64,000 nucleotides of DNA from Candidatus Amesbacteria bacterium (GCA_963736875.1 CAVTQH010000004.1:88050-152049); one strand, 5' to 3'. Shown: positions 1,332-54,792, counted from the stretch's first letter. Made by a program: numbers and translations. The notes: generated by a model from the letters alone, not told the origin.

Positions 1332-1741
1332 ATTCTTGAAGTCAAAATATGATTTGGCATCAGGCGCCGGATGTATTACGTCGGGTAAAATTCCTTTCAT
1401 CTCACTTAAACTTGGACCACATTATTCCCAGTCAGGTATTTTGCTTCAGAAGTCGGGGTTCTTCCGGCAGGGCGACAGCCCGTATCTGGAGTCTGCCGAA
1501 AATATGGCAGCAGGCGCTAAATGTATCTCCCGGATATTGCCTTGAGGTTATCAGTGAGAAATATGACAGACTTACCGAAGCCCAGAAGGAAAAGGTTGTT
1601 ATTCATGAGTTGTTACACATTCCCGGAACATTTTCCGGCAGTCTCAGTCCTCACCGCAATATTCGCCGCAGGACTTTTCTTCATTATCATGACCAAGTAG
1701 AAAGACTTTTTCACTCTTTAGTTAAAAAATCTTACGAATAA
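1285..1741 (+). CDS. Putative zinc metallopeptidase (HExxH, SprT/DUF45-like); two overlapping ORFs in different frames, apparent frameshift
   Basis: HELLH...H motif in the 1349..1741 ORF. The overlapping 1285..1545 ORF in another frame looks like its N-terminal part. Confidence 0.35.
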
Positions 1742-2407: not shown

Positions 2408-3424
2408 GTGGATTCTTTAAACGTTTATCAATCGCTTTTGGATTTTCCCAAACAGTGCTCTCAGGTTATCTCTGAAATATCCGAAACGACATTACCTTCT
2501 GATTGTGATTCTGTTAATAATATAGTCGTTTCAGGTATGGGCGGATCGGCATTAGGCGGAAGAGTTATCCAATATCTGGAACGAAACAGTTTAAAAACCC
2601 CCATTGTCATATCAACAGAGTACTTTTTACCGGAATTTGTGAACAAGGACAGCCTGGTAATAATTTCCAGTTATTCGGGTAATACTCAGGAAACAGTTTC
2701 TTCATTTAAAGATGCCATCAAACGCCGGGCAAAAATATTTGTGATAGCTACCGGTGGTGAAATTGCAAAAATGGCTAAGGAGGCGAACATTCCGGGTTAC
2801 ATATTTGATCCCCGTTTTAATTCCTGCTCCGAACCCAGAATGGGTCTTGGTTACAACATTATGTCGATCATCTGTACTTTGGACAGGTGCCGTTTGACAA
2901 AACCATTGGAGAATCTGGAATCTTTAACCGGTTATCTGACTCAAAAGCAATCGGACAATGAAAAATATCAACAACTGGCTGAGGAATTATCAGGAAAAAT
3001 TCCGCTGTTTATTGCCAGCGAGCACCTGACGGGAGCCTTGCACTGTATCAAAAATCAATTTAACGAAACCGCCAAGAATTTTTCCTTGTATTTTGATCTT
3101 CCGGAACTTAATCACCACCTTCTTGAGGGTTTGGCATACCCACCTTCCAATCCCGAAAACCTAATTTTTGTTTTGGTAAATTCAAAATATTATCATCCCG
3201 AAGTAGCCAAAAGATATCCTGTTTCTTTAGAAATTATTCAAAAACAACACTTTATTACCCAAGAGATCAAACTCGATGGTCCTTCCCCGCTTTTTGAAGT
3301 AATGGAGTTGATTCAAATGGGTGCTTTCTGCGCTTATTATCTTTCCCAGCTAAACCAGGTCGATCCGGGGGTTATTCCGTGGGTAGATTATTTTAAGAAA
3401 GCTTTTTCCTCTCCAAGCGGGTAA
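2408..3424 (+). CDS. pgi: Bifunctional phosphoglucose/phosphomannose isomerase (SIS domain, archaeal type)
   Basis: VVSGMGGSALGG SIS motif, 338 aa, GTG start. Confidence 0.8.
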   Translation: MDSLNVYQSLLDFPKQCSQVISEISETTLPSDCDSVNNIVVSGMGGSALGGRVIQYLERNSLKTPIVISTEYFLPEFVNKDSLVIISSYSGNTQETVSSFKDAIKRRAKIFVIATGGEIAKMAKEANIPGYIFDPRFNSCSEPRMGLGYNIMSIICTLDRCRLTKPLENLESLTGYLTQKQSDNEKYQQLAEELSGKIPLFIASEHLTGALHCIKNQFNETAKNFSLYFDLPELNHHLLEGLAYPPSNPENLIFVLVNSKYYHPEVAKRYPVSLEIIQKQHFITQEIKLDGPSPLFEVMELIQMGAFCAYYLSQLNQVDPGVIPWVDYFKKAFSSPSG

Positions 3425-9341: not shown

Positions 9342-9938
9342 TTAGGGAGTCTGATTTCCGCTTACGGCAATTTCGTATATGCAATTCTGTTTCTGATTAT
9401 TTTTCTTGAAACCGGACTGGTAATTACTCCGTTTTTACCTGGAGACAGTTTGGTATTTGCCGCAGGTGCTTTTTCAGCCTTAGGTTCGCTTAATGTCTTT
9501 CTTGTATTTTTATTACTGTCTTTTTCCGCCATTTTGGGAGACACCGCAAATTACTGGATAGGTTATTTTTTCGGAAAAAAAATTCTCAGCCATCCCAAAT
9601 TACCTATCAATCAGGAACATATAGACAAAACCAATGCCTTCTTCAAAAAGCACGGAGGAAAAACCATTATTTTGGCCAGATTTATGCCTTTTATCAGAAC
9701 TTTTGCCCCTTTCGTAGCAGGTATAGGCAAAATGAACTATAAAAATTTTATCTTTTATAATTTTATCGGTGGTATTTTATGGGTAGGTATGTTCACATTT
9801 GTCGGATATTTTTTCGGCAATGTGCCTTTTGTAAAACACAATTTTTCCCTGGTTATAATCGCGATTATCCTTCTTTCAGTTTCTCCCGCTTTCTATGAAT
9901 TTATCAGACACAAAATTAAAAAAACCTCTAATTACTAA
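9291..9938 (+). CDS. dedA: DedA/SNARE-associated family membrane protein
   Basis: ETGLVITPFLPGDSLVFAAGA motif, multi-TM. Confidence 0.8.
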   Translation: MEIISYVVDFILHIDIHLGSLISAYGNFVYAILFLIIFLETGLVITPFLPGDSLVFAAGAFSALGSLNVFLVFLLLSFSAILGDTANYWIGYFFGKKILSHPKLPINQEHIDKTNAFFKKHGGKTIILARFMPFIRTFAPFVAGIGKMNYKNFIFYNFIGGILWVGMFTFVGYFFGNVPFVKHNFSLVIIAIILLSVSPAFYEFIRHKIKKTSNY

Positions 9939-10569
9939 TACCGTACTTCCGGATTACTCCTACAACTTTTCCCTGAATTCTAACCTTGTCTCCGGCCACA
10001 AAAATCGGTGACATTGTAGAATTTGCAGGTTCCAGCCGTACCCTTGTAGCTTCTTTAAAAAATCTTTTCAGTGTAGCAAAGCCGTTGTCGAGTAACGCCA
10101 CTACCACTTCACCGTTACTGGCGGTTTCCGTTTGTTCGATCACCACATAATCTTTATCAAATATTCCTGCTTCGATCATCGAATCACCTTTTACCTGAAG
10201 AACGAAACAACGTTTCTTGGGATTTACCATACTCGGAGGGACGCTGAATATGGAGTTCGGGTCGGTATAAGGTTCAATTGGTGATCCTGCGGCAATAAAA
10301 CCAAGAACCGGTAATTCTATAGCCGCTTCACTGGAAGTTCTTTCCGCGGCATTTTTGTCCAGTATTTCCAGACCTCTGACAGAACCCTCGTATTTCTTAA
10401 TAACTCCTTTTTTAACCATTGCCTGTAAATGTTCATGTACGGTAGCCAGTGAACTTACTCCCAAAGCCTTGGCAATCTCCTGTAAAGTAGGGGAATACCC
10501 ATTTGCCTGAATATACTGTGCCACAAAATCCAGAATTTGCCTTTGCCTGTTGTATAAAGTTACCGGCAT
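9928..10569 (-). CDS. lexA: LexA repressor (S24 peptidase)
   Basis: N-terminal wHTH (QRQILDFV...LQEIAKALG), and the C-terminal GDSM...K catalytic Ser/Lys dyad. Confidence 0.9.
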   Translation of the reverse strand: MPVTLYNRQRQILDFVAQYIQANGYSPTLQEIAKALGVSSLATVHEHLQAMVKKGVIKKYEGSVRGLEILDKNAAERTSSEAAIELPVLGFIAAGSPIEPYTDPNSIFSVPPSMVNPKKRCFVLQVKGDSMIEAGIFDKDYVVIEQTETASNGEVVVALLDNGFATLKRFFKEATRVRLEPANSTMSPIFVAGDKVRIQGKVVGVIRKYGISN

Positions 10570-10582
10570 ACATATAATCTAA

Positions 10583-10605
10583 CCGAAGAAAACACAAATG
10601 TCAAG
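10583..10605. promoter_or_regulatory. Candidate SOS operator / lexA -35 region shared by the divergent lexA and uvrB promoters
   Basis: CCGAAGAAAACACAAATGTCAAG. On the lexA strand this gives TTGACA-17-TAGATT. The same 23-nt layout (CCGAA-N9-AATGTCAAG) recurs upstream of the Y-family polymerase cassette at 54320..54342. Confidence 0.3.
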
Positions 10606-10608
10606 CCT

Positions 10609-12624
10609 ATGTTTAAACTTAACGCTTCATATAAACCAACCGGAGACCAGCCGGAGGCCATCAAAAAATTAATTTCCGGTATCAAATCAGGGACGAGACA
10701 TCAGGTGCTTTTGGGTGTCACCGGTTCCGGTAAAACGTTTTCGGTGGCAAATGTTATAGCTTCGGTACAAAAGCCCACTCTGATCATATCCCATAACAAA
10801 ACTTTGGCGGCTCAGCTTTACCAGGAGTTTAAGGAATATTTTCCCGACAATGCAGTCTCATATTTTGTTTCCTATTACGATTACTACCAGCCTGAAGCTT
10901 ATATTCCACAAACTGATACCTATATTGAAAAGGAAACCGATATTAATTCAGAAATTGATAAATTACGTCTCGCGGCTACTACCAATCTCCTTACCCGGAA
11001 AGATGTCATAGTGGTGGCATCCGTCTCCTGTATTTACAACCTGGGTTCTCCAGCGGAATACGGTAAAACCATACTAGAACTGGTTACCGGCTTCAAAGTC
11101 TCCCGTCAGCAAATTATTATGCGTCTAAATGACCTTCAGTATTCCAGAAGCGATTATGATTTTCACCGCGGGACATACCGGATCCGCGGTGAAGTTATCG
11201 ACATTTATCCGGCATATGAAGATACCGCGGTCAGGGTTCATCATGATGGTTTAAAAATCACCGGTTTGGAAAGACTCAATGCCTTGACAGGTGAAAATAT
11301 ATCAGAATATGGCAAACAAAATATCGCCATATATCCGACCAAACATTATATAGCTTCCAAGGATAATCAAAATCAGGTTATTTCTCAAATACACAGTGAC
11401 ATGTTAAACCGTTACGCAGAATTACAATCTCAAAACAAACCCCTTGAAGCACACCGGATTAAACAGCGTGTGGAATACGATATGGAAATGATCAGGGAGT
11501 TGGGGTATGTCAATGGTATCGAAAATTATTCCCGTTATTTCGACGGGCGTTCTCCCGGAGATCCCCCGTATTCTCTTTTGGATTATTTTCCCGAAGATTA
11601 TCTTCTAATAATTGATGAATCTCACATTACCGTTCCCCAGATCAGAGGCATGTATAACGGTGACAGGTCCCGCAAACAAACACTTATTGATTATGGATTC
11701 CGTCTCCCCAGTGCGTTGGATAACCGACCTTTAAAATTTCTTGAATTCGAACGTCGTATGGGACAGACTATTTATACATCGGCAACACCTGATGAATGGG
11801 AGATTTCCCAATCGATCCCCTATATTGTTGAGCAGTTAATCCGTCCTACCGGTCTGGTTGATCCCCAAATCGTGGTCAAACCGACAACCGGTCAAATACC
11901 TGATCTGATAACCGAGATTCAAAGCCGGGTTGGGAAAGGCCAACGGGTGCTGGTCACAACCCTAACAAAAAGAATGGCTGAAGATTTATCTGAATTTCTA
12001 AAAGATAAAGGATTAAAAGTTCATTATTTACATTCGGATATCGATACCTTGGAACGGCTGGATATTCTTTCTGATCTGCGAAGCGGAACATATGATGTGG
12101 TTGTAGGTATAAATCTGCTTCGTGAAGGACTGGATTTACCTGAAGTCTCATTGGTAGCAATTCTGGATGCCGATAAAGAAGGTTTTCTGCGTTCCCGGAC
12201 ATCTCTGGTTCAGACAATGGGCCGTGCGGCCAGGCATGTAGACGGGTCGGTCATTATGTATGCAGACCGCATAACCAACTCCATGGAAAAGGCAATTTCT
12301 GAGGTTAAAAGACGAAGAGAAGTACAAATCAAATATAACCATGACCATCATTTAATCCCGTTGTCTATAACCAAACCCATTCGCGAAAGGATTGTAGAAA
12401 AGACAGTGGACGAGCCGGTAAAACTTGACCCCAAACAAATTTTTTCCGGCCATGCTCTGGATGCCTCTGCGGTAGACTCCGATCTTGTTTCTCAGTTAAC
12501 TCCTCAAGATTTATCCAAACTCATTGGTTTGATCACCCGGCAAATGAATGCTGCTTCCAAACAGCTTGATTTCGAGCTGGCAGCCAAACTCCGTGATAAG
12601 ATAATTGAAATCAAAAATATCTGA
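10609..12624 (+). CDS. uvrB: Excinuclease ABC subunit B
   Basis: Walker A GVTGSGKT, helicase motifs, C-terminal UVR domain. 671 aa. Confidence 0.95.
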   Translation: MFKLNASYKPTGDQPEAIKKLISGIKSGTRHQVLLGVTGSGKTFSVANVIASVQKPTLIISHNKTLAAQLYQEFKEYFPDNAVSYFVSYYDYYQPEAYIPQTDTYIEKETDINSEIDKLRLAATTNLLTRKDVIVVASVSCIYNLGSPAEYGKTILELVTGFKVSRQQIIMRLNDLQYSRSDYDFHRGTYRIRGEVIDIYPAYEDTAVRVHHDGLKITGLERLNALTGENISEYGKQNIAIYPTKHYIASKDNQNQVISQIHSDMLNRYAELQSQNKPLEAHRIKQRVEYDMEMIRELGYVNGIENYSRYFDGRSPGDPPYSLLDYFPEDYLLIIDESHITVPQIRGMYNGDRSRKQTLIDYGFRLPSALDNRPLKFLEFERRMGQTIYTSATPDEWEISQSIPYIVEQLIRPTGLVDPQIVVKPTTGQIPDLITEIQSRVGKGQRVLVTTLTKRMAEDLSEFLKDKGLKVHYLHSDIDTLERLDILSDLRSGTYDVVVGINLLREGLDLPEVSLVAILDADKEGFLRSRTSLVQTMGRAARHVDGSVIMYADRITNSMEKAISEVKRRREVQIKYNHDHHLIPLSITKPIRERIVEKTVDEPVKLDPKQIFSGHALDASAVDSDLVSQLTPQDLSKLIGLITRQMNAASKQLDFELAAKLRDKIIEIKNI

Positions 12625-12860
12625 TGGAATAAACTTTTGATGTCTGTAATAATTGAAAGCGAAATCATATTTTCAAAGAAAAATCACAAAAATAATTCTC
12701 AGCCATATCAACGCGCTGAAATACCCAAAAAGATAGTCCCCCCTCCTCCTCACTGTAATAATAATTGCCTCAAAAAACACATACCATCAGACGGAAAGCG
12801 AAGAATAAAATAAGGCCTTATCGGGTCTTGAATAAAACCCGAAACTTCTGGTACAATGGT

Positions 12861-51839: not shown

Positions 51840-52775
51840 CTAAACTGAGAATATTTGACTTTTTGGAAGACCCATAGTAATATACGACCAGGTTTCGTAG
51901 CTTAGCTTAACCGCTTTGCTGTGAGATTTTAAAAGCCTCGGCACTGGGCAGGAGCCGGGGCTTTTTTTGTGCCTAAATTTCATACTATAATCAAACTGTG
52001 CGCCTCGTGGTGAAATGGTATACACGCAGGCTTTAGGAGCCTGTCCCAGCGATGGTGGTAGGAGGTTCGAGTCCTCTCGAGGGCACATTACAAACTTACT
52101 TTCCTGGCTTCTTTCCATTACTCTGAAATTATTATTCCCTGGATTATTTACCAAATCAGCCACCCGGTAAGCTTCCATTTTATCCGTTTCATTAGGTTCC
52201 ATTATTTTCTTGAGTCTTTCGATATCAAAAAATTTATTATTCAGCCAATCCTCTTCATCTTCTGTATTTAGTATTACCGGCATCCGGTCGTGAATTTCCA
52301 TCATTGTCTTATTTGCCTTTGTAGTCACAATTGAGAATGTCTTAATCTCAAACCCCTGGGCATCTTTCCAGATATCAAAAATTCCGGCAAAACCGAATAT
52401 TCTTCTTTCAACAAGCCTGATCCAATATGGAATTTTAAGTACTTTTCCCCGATCGGAAACTTTTCTCCACTCAAAAAATCCGCTGGCCGGTACCAGACAT
52501 CGCTGCTGTCTGAAAGCTTTTCTGAAAGCCGGTTTAACTTCTATCTCCTCGCTTCTGGCATTAATTGTGCTGTAGCTGATACGCGGATCCCTGGCCCAGA
52601 ACGGAATCAAACCCCATTTCATTTTTTCCACCTTTTTGGGGCTTTTCATGGTTACCACCGGCATTATCATTCCCGGTGCCACGTTATATTCCGGTGACAT
52701 TTCCACCTCGCGGTTTTCAATTTCAAACCGGTCATAAAAATCTTTTTCCGGTATAAATCCGTATCTTCCGCACAT
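51840..52775 (-). CDS. yedK: SOS-response-associated peptidase (SRAP/YedK/HMCES family) abasic-site processing protein
   Basis: N-terminal MCGRYG (Cys2 nucleophile) and SGFFEWR motifs. The family length (~230 aa) implies an end near ~52100, but the ORF stays open to 51840 and reads antisense through tRNA-Leu(TAG). Confidence 0.75.
   Translation of the reverse strand: MCGRYGFIPEKDFYDRFEIENREVEMSPEYNVAPGMIMPVVTMKSPKKVEKMKWGLIPFWARDPRISYSTINARSEEIEVKPAFRKAFRQQRCLVPASGFFEWRKVSDRGKVLKIPYWIRLVERRIFGFAGIFDIWKDAQGFEIKTFSIVTTKANKTMMEIHDRMPVILNTEDEEDWLNNKFFDIERLKKIMEPNETDKMEAYRVADLVNNPGNNNFRVMERSQESKFVMCPREDSNLLPPSLGQAPKACVYTISPRGAQFDYSMKFRHKKSPGSCPVPRLLKSHSKAVKLSYETWSYITMGLPKSQIFSV
51935..51968 (+). 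terminator. Rho-independent terminator (9-bp GC stem + T7), A-tract on the other side
   Basis: AAAAGCCTCGGC-ACTGGGCAGGA-GCCGGGGCTTTTTTT. Confidence 0.6.
52001..52085 (+). tRNA. tRNA-Leu (anticodon TAG), type II; the first two acceptor-stem pairs are mismatched
   Basis: Anticodon stem CAGGC/GCCTG with loop TTTAGGA, long variable arm, T-loop TTCGAGT. The 3' acceptor CGAGGGC faces 5' CGCCTCG (C1-C72 and G2-G71 unpaired). Confidence 0.6.
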
Positions 52776-52784
52776 ATTCCGATT

Positions 52785-54042
52785 TTAACTCATAACTATC
52801 TCCTCCAGCTCTTTTATCCCTCCGAACGCTATCCGGTCAGGTACCAGATCCGCCGCTCCCAACATCAGAGCCGGAGTCAGCACAAAATTTCCCCATCTTT
52901 CGTTTACCTTATCCACCGCCGCCACCAGACTTTCCTTTTTTGCTACCTCCTCCAAAAATGTTGTTTGCAAAACGCCTTGTTTTACTAAATCAAATCCTGA
53001 TACCGCCAGTGTATGCACGGGTTTCCGATACGGGGAAGAGACCATTATCCGCCTGGCTGCCTTATAAATATCCCTGCTGTCAAAGATCGGATCGGGCTGC
53101 ACCTGCCCATGATGCCACCAGGAAAAATCACGGTACAGCATCCCCACATGCACTCCCCGGGCCCGATACCCGGCCCGCCGCATTCTCATCCCCATCTTAA
53201 AAACCAGTTTGTGCAAAATCGGCGACAATTCTTCAGGGCAGGAAACCGGTTTGGGCAAAGCATAACTGTTCCCGTAGCTTCTCCGGGCAAACACCACATC
53301 GTCAACCTCAAACCCCCTCAGACGTAAATACCAATAGTATCCCAGTACCGAACCAAACGCAGCTTTCAGAACAGTTGCCCGCGCTGCCCAAAAATCAACC
53401 ACGGAAAATATTCCGAAATAATTCAGACGGGCTGCGTTATTACCCTTGATTCCGCACAAATCCGCCAGTTTCAAACCCATATAAATTGTCAGAAAATTAC
53501 CTTTGTCAATCACATCCAGCCCGTCCGGTTTGTGCAGAGAAGCTCCGGTTTTGGCCAGCCACCGGTTGGGAGCAATCCCCACCGACACCCGCAAAAAATC
53601 CCCCACTTCCTCTCTGACCCTTTTTTTAATCTCCGTCGCCACCTCCACCATCCCCCTGCGCCGACAGGGGGCTCCCTCCAAATCCATCACAAATTCATCT
53701 ATCGACTTGGGTGTCACTTTATCGGTATAAGTCCCCAACAAGCTGCTTCAGTTTAAGATGTACCGACCGGTATTTATTCGGATCCGGCGGTATCACTATC
53801 AGTTCGGGTACCAGCATTCTGCCGTCTTTCACCCGCATTCCCACCCGTACCCCCAGCTTCTTGGCTTCCACCGAAGGAGCAATAATGCATCCCCCGGGGG
53901 TCGTATATGCCGCCACCGCCACCGGTTTACCCCGGAGGAGGGGATTGGCCTGCTGTTCCACACTGGCAAAGCAGGAATTCAGGTCCAAATGGATAATCGT
54001 CGGCTCTTTTGAATTAAAAGACAAATCAGTCAGCTTCTCCAT
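52785..54042 (-). CDS. dinB: Y-family DNA polymerase (DinB/UmuC-like, Pol IV/V class); N-terminal 107-aa and C-terminal 318-aa ORFs split by an apparent frameshift
   Basis: N-terminal IIHLDLNSCFASVEQ motif (the conserved DxxxFFAxVE block). C-terminal VGIAPNRWLAKTGASLHKPDG and the little-finger region. Noticeably GC-richer (~57%) than its neighbours. Confidence 0.8.
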
Positions 54043-54286: not shown

Positions 54287-54319
54287 AGCTACTCTGCTGG
54301 CCCTCGTCTTTATTCATAC

Positions 54320-54342
54320 CCGAATATTACCCGAATGTCAAG
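54320..54342. promoter_or_regulatory. Candidate promoter/operator of the polymerase cassette, sharing a motif with the lexA/uvrB region
   Basis: CCGAATATTACCCGAATGTCAAG. On the cassette strand this gives TTGACA-17-TATGAA with TTCGG elements in the spacer, 34-56 nt upstream of the first start codon. Confidence 0.3.
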
Positions 54343-54393
54343 AGATACAAAACATATCATGGGATTTCTTCATGACATCCGTCTAATAGTCAC

Positions 54394-54792
54394 ATGGAAA
54401 TTCCCCGTCACTGGCGCTTAAAAAAACAAAGATACGCTCTGATCGGAGAAATCTGTCCCCATTGTGATGCCAAACTTTTCCCTCCCCGGGACATTTGTCC
54501 GCAATGCAAAAAGGAGGCAAAAACACCTTTCCAATTTTCCGGAAAAGGAGAAATTTACTCACACACAACCATGCATGAAGGTCTCCCTGACGGTTATCAG
54601 GGTCTTGTTCCGCTTTCTATCGCCCTCATCAAACTGGAAGAAGGTCCTATTATTACTGCCCAACTTACCGATCTGGGGGATAAAAAGCCGGAAATCGGTA
54701 TGCCGGTGGAAATGGTAACCCGCAGGTTACAAGATAACAGTGACGAACAGGGAATTATTGTTTACGGTTATAAATTCCGTCCTGTACTGTAA
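54394..54792 (+). CDS. DUF35-family Zn-ribbon + OB-fold protein (COG1545)
   Basis: CPHCDAK...CPQCKK zinc ribbon followed by an OB-fold-like C-terminus. 132 aa. Confidence 0.55.
   Translation: MEIPRHWRLKKQRYALIGEICPHCDAKLFPPRDICPQCKKEAKTPFQFSGKGEIYSHTTMHEGLPDGYQGLVPLSIALIKLEEGPIITAQLTDLGDKKPEIGMPVEMVTRRLQDNSDEQGIIVYGYKFRPVL

Follow-up and report, generated by a model that had tools for sequence, protein, structure and literature searches.

A tandem direct repeat upstream of a translesion-polymerase cassette is a probable LexA operator of the Patescibacteria type

We analysed a 64,000-nt stretch of DNA (hereafter the window) from an uncultivated bacterium of the Microgenomates (Patescibacteria/CPR) and found a tandem repeat in the promoter of an operon that encodes an 86-aa protein, a Y-family polymerase and SRAP. 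The pair of TTCGGGT units, spaced 11 nt apart, is probably a LexA operator of the Patescibacteria type that would repress this operon, with weaker copies at lexA/uvrB and at uvrA; from the sequence, we put the probability of this reading at about 85%. The anatomy of the site, its statistics, its conservation across many genomes and the synteny of the locus were observed directly and are described below. The original prediction had proposed a small LexA regulon with a non-canonical operator. The regulon stood, in that lexA, uvrB, the polymerase/SRAP operon and probably uvrA appear to belong to it, but the boundaries drawn for the operator had to be moved.

The gene calls on which the prediction rested held for LexA, the polymerase and SRAP (Table 1). 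Judged from its translation, the LexA of the window is a full-length equivalog in which both the DNA-binding and the autocleavage domains are present: it contains the Pfam LexA_DNA_bind and Peptidase_S24 domains and shows the motifs FIAAGSP, GDSM and LKRF as well as an Ala-Gly cleavage site and a Ser/Lys dyad. Its top match was a protein from a Microgenomates metagenome-assembled genome (79% identity), and proteins of Bacillota formed the next tier (39-46%). Using the LexA protein, a scan that took one genome per species retrieved 38 Patescibacteria loci. As in the window, lexA and uvrB diverge in many of these loci, and uvrA often follows closely downstream. The 86-aa/polymerase cassette was sought within the 38 lexA loci and was absent; only uvrB and uvrA were found there.

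Table 1. Positions of the predicted operator matches, promoter elements and genes, counted from the first letter of the window.
Feature	Coordinates	Strand	Score	Sequence	Remark
Operator match, rank 1	54317-54335	-	27.6 bits	TTCGGGTAATATTCGGGTA	cassette promoter
Operator match, rank 2	10580-10598	-	14.6 bits	TTTGTGTTTTCTTCGGTTA	lexA promoter
Operator match, rank 3	2674-2692	+	14.1 bits	TTCGGGTAATACTCAGGAA	within phosphoglucose-isomerase-type gene
Operator match, rank 4	12825-12843	-	12.9 bits	TTCGGGTTTTATTCAAGAC	over uvrA -35 box, opposite orientation
Cassette -35	54336-54341	-		TTGACA	read from sequence
Cassette -10 (probable)	54313-54318	-		TATGAA	17 nt after -35; inferred from sequence
First cassette gene, 86 aa	54026-54286	-			probable diverged standalone ImuB-C (DUF6504-like)
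DinB-type Y-family polymerase	52785-54042	-			Pfam IMS and IMS_C
SRAP (YedK/HMCES-type abasic-site protein)	51840-52775	-	E 9.5e-68		Pfam SRAP, residues 1-212
tRNA-Leu(tag)	52001-52086	+			crossed by SRAP ORF on opposite strand
lexA	9928-10569	-	209 bits (cut-off 111)		213 aa; TIGR00498
lexA promoter	10576-10604	-		TTGACA-17-TAGATT	promoter scan; -35 10604-10599, operator 10598-10580, -10 TAGATT 10581-10576
lexA-uvrB intergenic gap	10570-10608				39 nt in all
uvrB -10 (candidate)	10573-10578	+		TATAAT	inferred from sequence; ATTATA kept in L001 and L002
uvrB	10609-12624	+			divergent from lexA
uvrA promoter	12828-12857			TTGAAT-18-TACAAT	CCCGAAAC within spacer
ChsH2/DUF35-type protein	54394-54792	+			zinc ribbon and OB fold; divergent from cassette
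130-aa ORF	1349-1741	+	E 5e-22		'putative phage metallopeptidase', PF18894

On its coding strand, the cassette operator consists of two perfect TTCGGGT(A) units, at 54335-54329 and 54324-54318, and it is the only place in the 64 kb where TTCGGGT-N4-TTCGGGT occurs with zero mismatches. The -35 hexamer stands immediately upstream, and the first 2 nt of the probable -10 box are the final 2 nt of the operator. The same order is found in relatives, where nearly all lexA and cassette promoters have TTGAC(A) at 0-3 nt before the repeat and where the -10 at the cassette position reads TATTAA, TATATA, TACAAT, TATCAT or TATACA. At the window's cassette -10, a poor box, a strict promoter scan called no promoter because TATGAA lacks the final T. 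The cassette and lexA promoters of the window have identical geometry: TTGACA is followed at once by a 19-nt operator that takes up the 17-nt spacer and 2 nt of the -10 box.

On the other side of the cassette promoter lies a divergent gene for a ChsH2/DUF35-type protein, whose start is 59 nt from the operator, a distance that places the operator outside the likely core promoter of that gene. In the syntenic contig L101, about 440 nt of uncalled DNA occupy the place that this gene has in the window.

This geometry also accounts for the 23-nt motif that had been described as having the same length and conserved ends at the two loci. Both instances are real: CCGAATATTACCCGAATGTCAAG was found at 54320-54342, in the 107-nt gap upstream of the 86-aa ORF on the minus strand, and CCGAAGAAAACACAAATGTCAAG at 10583-10605, inside the lexA/uvrB gap. 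The ends, however, mix the -35 box with part of the repeat. The conserved end AATGTCAAG joins TTGACA, the -35 hexamer (TGTCAA on the other strand), to the first TT of unit 1, and the CCGAA of the motif represents only the core of unit 2. The two 23-mers share their length and their ends because the promoter/operator geometry is identical at the two sites.

To define the operator we turned to the lexA promoters of relatives. Their upstream regions have in common TTGAC(A) followed by TTCGGGTWWTRTTYGKKTA, and de novo expectation maximization on 37 of these regions, none of them from the window, gave TTGACA followed by TTCGGGTATTATTCGT and converged as TTGTCAACTTCGGGTATTATTCGT. A 19-nt matrix that starts after the -35 box was built from 30 lexA-promoter sites in other Patescibacteria genomes. 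Its columns correlate with each other at offset 11 (mean correlation 0.79), whereas every palindromic register stays at or below 0.33. The operator is thus built as a direct repeat in tandem, TTCGGGT-N4-TTCGKGT, whose two units are spaced by 11 nt, one helical turn.

When the window was scanned with this matrix, three of the four matches with at least 12 bits fell in the lexA/uvrB, uvrA and polymerase-cassette promoters. With these three repair-gene promoters excluded, 1 of 127,400 window positions reached at least 12 bits. This was the match ranked third, which was taken as chance, being inside a coding region in a glycolysis cluster. Adjoining that cluster of glycolysis genes is the 130-aa ORF of Table 1, which matches a phage metallopeptidase family.

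Because the original prediction had itself named a null, that the similarity reflects just two sigma-70 -35 boxes, we weighed the corresponding alternative: two strong sigma-70 promoters would have a CTTGACA -35 in common and TTCGG by chance, and there would be no operator. Of the 14 positions that the two instances of the 23-nt pattern have in common, 9 indeed fall in CTTGACATT, the -35 box with 3 flanking bases, the lexA site of the window is weak, and the pattern is no rarer than chance. With up to 2 mismatches allowed, 0.62 matches were expected, and at least 2 matches were found in 12 of 100 shuffles; this test carries no information, since the pattern came from its own two sites. A search for TTCGGGT-N4-TTCGGGT with up to 3 mismatches likewise found 10 matches in the window against 6.6 expected, so a loose consensus cannot support the lexA and uvrA sites. 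The matrix, however, has no -35 columns and still gives the cassette site a score above the maximum over 200 shuffles (22.3 bits), which refutes the null for this site. As described next, the repeat also stands in 12 of 14 cassette promoters and in about 30 lexA promoters whose sequences are otherwise different, and is nearly absent elsewhere. We therefore consider it extremely unlikely that the resemblance comes from the -35 boxes and chance alone.

The comparative evidence came from relatives that were collected with the 86-aa protein, comprising 14 metagenomic contigs and 53 database homologues, plus added gene contexts. In 12 of 14 distinct regions upstream of the 86-aa/polymerase pair, we found TTGAC and then the tandem repeat, at 16.7-28.4 bits and at a distance of 29-88 nt from the ATG. 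Of the other two regions, one ends at a contig edge and one has a variant with a weak first and a strong second unit. As background, the 38 lexA loci outside their lexA promoters had 3 of 570,462 positions above 16.7 bits, and one of the three is a uvrA promoter. In the contig L100, a single row of genes behind GTTCGGTTTTGTTCGGTTATAAT consists of lexA, an 82-aa homologue and the polymerase. A second tandem repeat was seen 1-30 nt upstream of the 86-aa gene in L087 and L088/L089, for example TTCGCTAAATATTCGGGTAAC-ATG, which suggests that some lineages have two operators per promoter.

Could a different regulator bind the repeat? OmpR/PhoB-type proteins classically bind direct repeats that recur every 11 nt, and a winged-helix response regulator of this type could in principle recognise the units, in which case lexA would be co-regulated and not autoregulated. 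The 11-nt spacing, typical of such proteins, is what speaks for this. The position of the site does not fit, since it lies between -35 and -10, where a repressor would sit, whereas OmpR/PhoB activator sites replace or precede the -35. LexA boxes are classically recognised by an autoregulated lexA together with a translesion polymerase; the repeat is found before lexA in about 30 genomes and before the lexA/small-protein/polymerase row of L100, which is the mark of autoregulation. The genes concerned, namely lexA, uvrB, uvrA, a translesion polymerase and SRAP, are also the textbook SOS set, and LexA of Patescibacteria is reported to recognise direct repeats in papers that cite the original study. 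A regulator other than LexA is thus very unlikely, and a LexA operator is the reading that we follow here.

We then examined the weaker copies. The lexA site shows the repeat in degenerate form, with 3 mismatches to the ideal, and its score is attained by no background position in the window. Its register matches that of the sites in L001, L002 and L010 and that of strong sites in relatives further removed; stronger operator sites stand at the same place in the lexA promoters of about 30 related genomes. The lexA mRNA is probably leaderless because the -10 ends 6 nt before the ATG (10569). More generally, the start codons of lexA and uvrA are 6-9 nt past the -10 boxes, a hint that mRNAs of this organism have no leader or almost none.

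On the uvrB side of the gap, the candidate -10 was not called by the strict scan because its -35 is weak. It overlaps the -10 box of lexA, so that the two divergent boxes lie back to back. The operator would lie a short way downstream of this candidate box, and a single site could control both lexA and uvrB. Upstream of lexA in two of the relatives (L009 and L011, about 30-60 nt before the gene), inverted TTCGGG-N9-CCCGAA elements were observed besides the direct repeats. In some lineages LexA may be able to read the half-site in either orientation, and the inverted uvrA site of the window would fit this.

The uvrA promoter TTGAAT-18-TACAAT was confirmed where it had been predicted, together with the element in its spacer. 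Its operator match, too, departs from the ideal repeat at 3 positions, and it is a weak candidate. The site is conserved in L002 at 12.0 bits, and in L029 a 23.8-bit site lies upstream of uvrA in the same orientation as in the window. Since 8 of 11 related uvrA promoters are without a site, regulation of uvrA is not general among the relatives. By sequence the lexA and uvrA sites are weak, and they rest mainly on position and on conservation in L001, L002 and L029. What counts against the operator reading is the weakness of these two sites in the window, the lack of a site in most related uvrA promoters, the poor -10 box of the cassette and the frameshift in its polymerase gene.

A separate feature was noticed in the uvrA leaders of eight more distant Microgenomates/Woesebacteria relatives, L029 among them. 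It is a hairpin-like element, CC[GA]YCGG-TAAWCC-GRYGGG, that comes directly after the -10 and about 15-75 nt before the start codon and is often followed by TTTGCGTG. The element is missing from the window and from L002. It matched no Rfam family, and the RNAalifold consensus was weak with almost no covariation.

The mechanism that we infer involves LexA binding, promoter occlusion, leaderless starts and control of uvrB and uvrA. A bound LexA dimer would fill the whole spacer between -35 and -10 of the cassette promoter, and we propose that RNA polymerase would therefore be blocked. Upon DNA damage, RecA would stimulate the self-cleavage of LexA, for which the window protein appears to have the required Ala-Gly site and Ser/Lys dyad, and the cassette promoter would be freed. 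The operon could then be transcribed, giving the 86-aa probable ImuB-C-like subunit, the DinB-type polymerase and SRAP. The weaker operator copy in the lexA promoter has the same geometry and would provide autoregulation of lexA; since it lies within the 39-nt gap that lexA has in common with uvrB, uvrB is probably controlled as well. The third copy, weak and inverted, might act over the -35 box of uvrA.

Next, we asked what the first gene of the cassette encodes. Its 86-aa product matched no model in Pfam or NCBIfam, including the S24 peptidase domain and the SH3-like YolD family. In every context the Y-family polymerase gene directly follows the small gene, usually with an overlap at its start, and SRAP comes next after the polymerase in the window, L083 and L101. 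The description of standalone ImuB-C by Aravind et al. (PMC3765255) gives a beta-rich protein with a conserved C-terminal tryptophan and basic residues, mostly encoded beside DinB and often with LexA and SRAP; the orders LexA/ImuBC/DinB/SRAP in Pelobacter and SRAP/LexA/ImuBC/DinB in Geobacter are listed there. An ImuB-C of 80 residues is reported from Deinococcus deserti (PMC8072749), and ImuB-C has been described as a beta-barrel without close relatives in the PDB (PMC12926913). The 86-aa family agrees with this description in having about 80 aa, a beta-rich composition, a C-terminal tryptophan, basic residues and no known fold.

Scores of the 86-aa family against DUF6504 were all below the Pfam cut-off, the best (E 0.002; 18.8 versus 24.2 bits) being that of a distant member. 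An hhalign comparison with five Deinococcus ImuB-C proteins gave a probability of 47.5% (P 1.9e-4, 53 columns), with the match in the N-terminal region P-x-R-x-x-W-x-G-R-x-Y-x-I. In D. deserti, an operon has lexA, a Y-family polymerase, a 'DUF6504 family protein' and dnaE2 in a row. The standalone ImuB-C of this species passes the Pfam DUF6504 model at 30 bits, so the names ImuB-C and DUF6504 are linked through it. Homology searches for ImuB/DUF6504, started from the distant member and from a widened alignment, returned only small proteins of Patescibacteria. A tblastn search of plasmids with the distant member gave a match in Rhizobium, which was rejected as chance.

From these likenesses in sequence, the 86-aa protein is probably a diverged standalone ImuB-C, a small polymerase subunit, and the cassette would thereby correspond to the known ImuB-C/DinB/SRAP architecture. 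A broader proposal, which we regard as somewhat doubtful, is that the protein is an undescribed, obligatory partner of the SOS-induced DinB-type polymerase throughout Patescibacteria, either an ImuB-C that has diverged too far for any curated model to detect or an unrelated small beta fold, and that with the polymerase it forms a minimal two-subunit mutasome at the conserved core of the CPR SOS regulon. This polymerase partner is the best remaining lead of the analysis. Being widespread and without a Pfam or NCBIfam model, it is a sensible subject for structural and biochemical studies of accessory subunits of translesion polymerases.

The present state of the cassette bears on whether the regulated genes still function. 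In the window the polymerase is split into ORFs of 107 aa (53719-54042) and 318 aa (52785-53741) by an extra base near 53742, and the gene thus has both domains without a single intact frame. The 94%-identical L081 has no extra base and reads in one frame; intact relatives are 405-418 aa long, and Pol IV models score best with them. With the polymerase frameshifted, part of the regulated operon may be without function in this genome. The SRAP ORF has 311 aa and stays open as far as 51840, whereas its relatives align only to about residue 215-227 and the gene of L101 has 218 aa. Where the window has the tRNA-Leu gene, L101 has a gene for a CAP-domain protein.

Frame changes are clustered in this part of the window. 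Compared with the syntenic L101, four genes are broken between 50505 and 55415, with five frame changes in all: a 195-aa hypothetical protein (2 frames), a methyltransferase (3), the Y-family polymerase (2) and a cyclophilin (2). Genes from 55.4 to 62.6 kb are intact. Local consensus errors or local gene decay could explain the frame changes.

On the second explanation, the operator might be a relic in a decaying cassette, with no working translesion system under its control. The single extra base that splits the polymerase relative to L081, the three further split genes between 50.5 and 55.4 kb relative to L101 and the SRAP ORF that runs over a tRNA gene would all suit a locus in decay. Against this, neither the operator nor the 86-aa gene is damaged, and both are almost the same as their counterparts in L081 and L094; moreover, frameshifts that are clustered next to 7 kb of intact genes fit consensus or assembly errors as well as decay. 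We think a relic unlikely. It would in any case concern the function of the genes at present and not the identity of the site, and the reading as a LexA operator is the one we retain.

The finding indicates that a classical damage-inducible circuit persists in an uncultivated bacterium of small genome size, where it is reduced to a handful of promoters, and by sequence the LexA of this circuit would use an unusual direct-repeat binding mode. As the geometry of the two promoters is identical and the cassette site is perfect, this site offers a clean substrate on which to study the reading of tandem half-sites by a LexA dimer. Current knowledge is not overturned by the operator finding.

Several known systems resemble the cassette. 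UmuD'2C (Pol V) and YolD/YqjX-PolY2 likewise appear to have a small gene directly upstream of a Y-family polymerase, co-transcribed and repressed by LexA; here the two genes overlap, and the 86-aa protein is without the S24 peptidase domain and without a match to SH3-like YolD. The lexA/imuB-C/polY(/SRAP) operons of Geobacter and Pelobacter (PMC3765255; PMC6511836) are alike in gene order, with a small beta-rich protein first, an active DinB-type polymerase next and SRAP last, and in their control by LexA. The Geobacter operon is reported to be damage-induced (PMC3765255; PMC6511836), and L100 likewise has lexA in the row. In the window, by contrast, lexA is 44 kb away beside uvrB, and the small protein is marginally ImuB-C/DUF6504-like. 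The Geobacter operator, GGTT-N10-AACC, is also unlike the repeat found here.

Among LexA operators, the Cheo box of Firmicutes and other Gram-positive bacteria is the palindrome CGAAC-N4-GTTCG. The window LexA is 39-46% identical to LexA of Bacillus, Clostridia and other Bacillota, and TTCGGGT contains the TTCG of GTTCG. The Cheo box is palindromic, however, whereas the units in the window point the same way and the palindrome test was negative. The alphaproteobacterial LexA box is GTTC-N7-GTTC (PMC8565304). It is alike in being a direct repeat with an 11-nt period bound by a canonical LexA, and its core resembles the unit of the window (TTCG/GTTC); its unit is 4 nt against 7 nt here, it belongs to another phylum, and an evolutionary link would be speculation.

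The Patescibacteria LexA operator of Sanchez-Osuna, Barbe and Erill (Environ Microbiol 2017, PMID 28618189) is alike in clade (Microgenomates) and repressor family. According to a paper that cites this study, LexA has independently evolved recognition of direct repeats (PMC7739468, citing PMID 28618189), and the LexA proteins of Ca. Collierbacteria (Microgenomates) and Parcubacteria from the same work are listed as experimentally validated in Table S2 of PMC8565304. The likeness, drawn through these citing papers and not by consensus, extends to the direct-repeat architecture and to the location at lexA and translesion-polymerase promoters. The window genome differs as a new instance whose own lexA site is degenerate. 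As far as these citing papers convey it, the direct-repeat type of LexA operator was already reported for Patescibacteria, and the window is a new example of it, not a new system.
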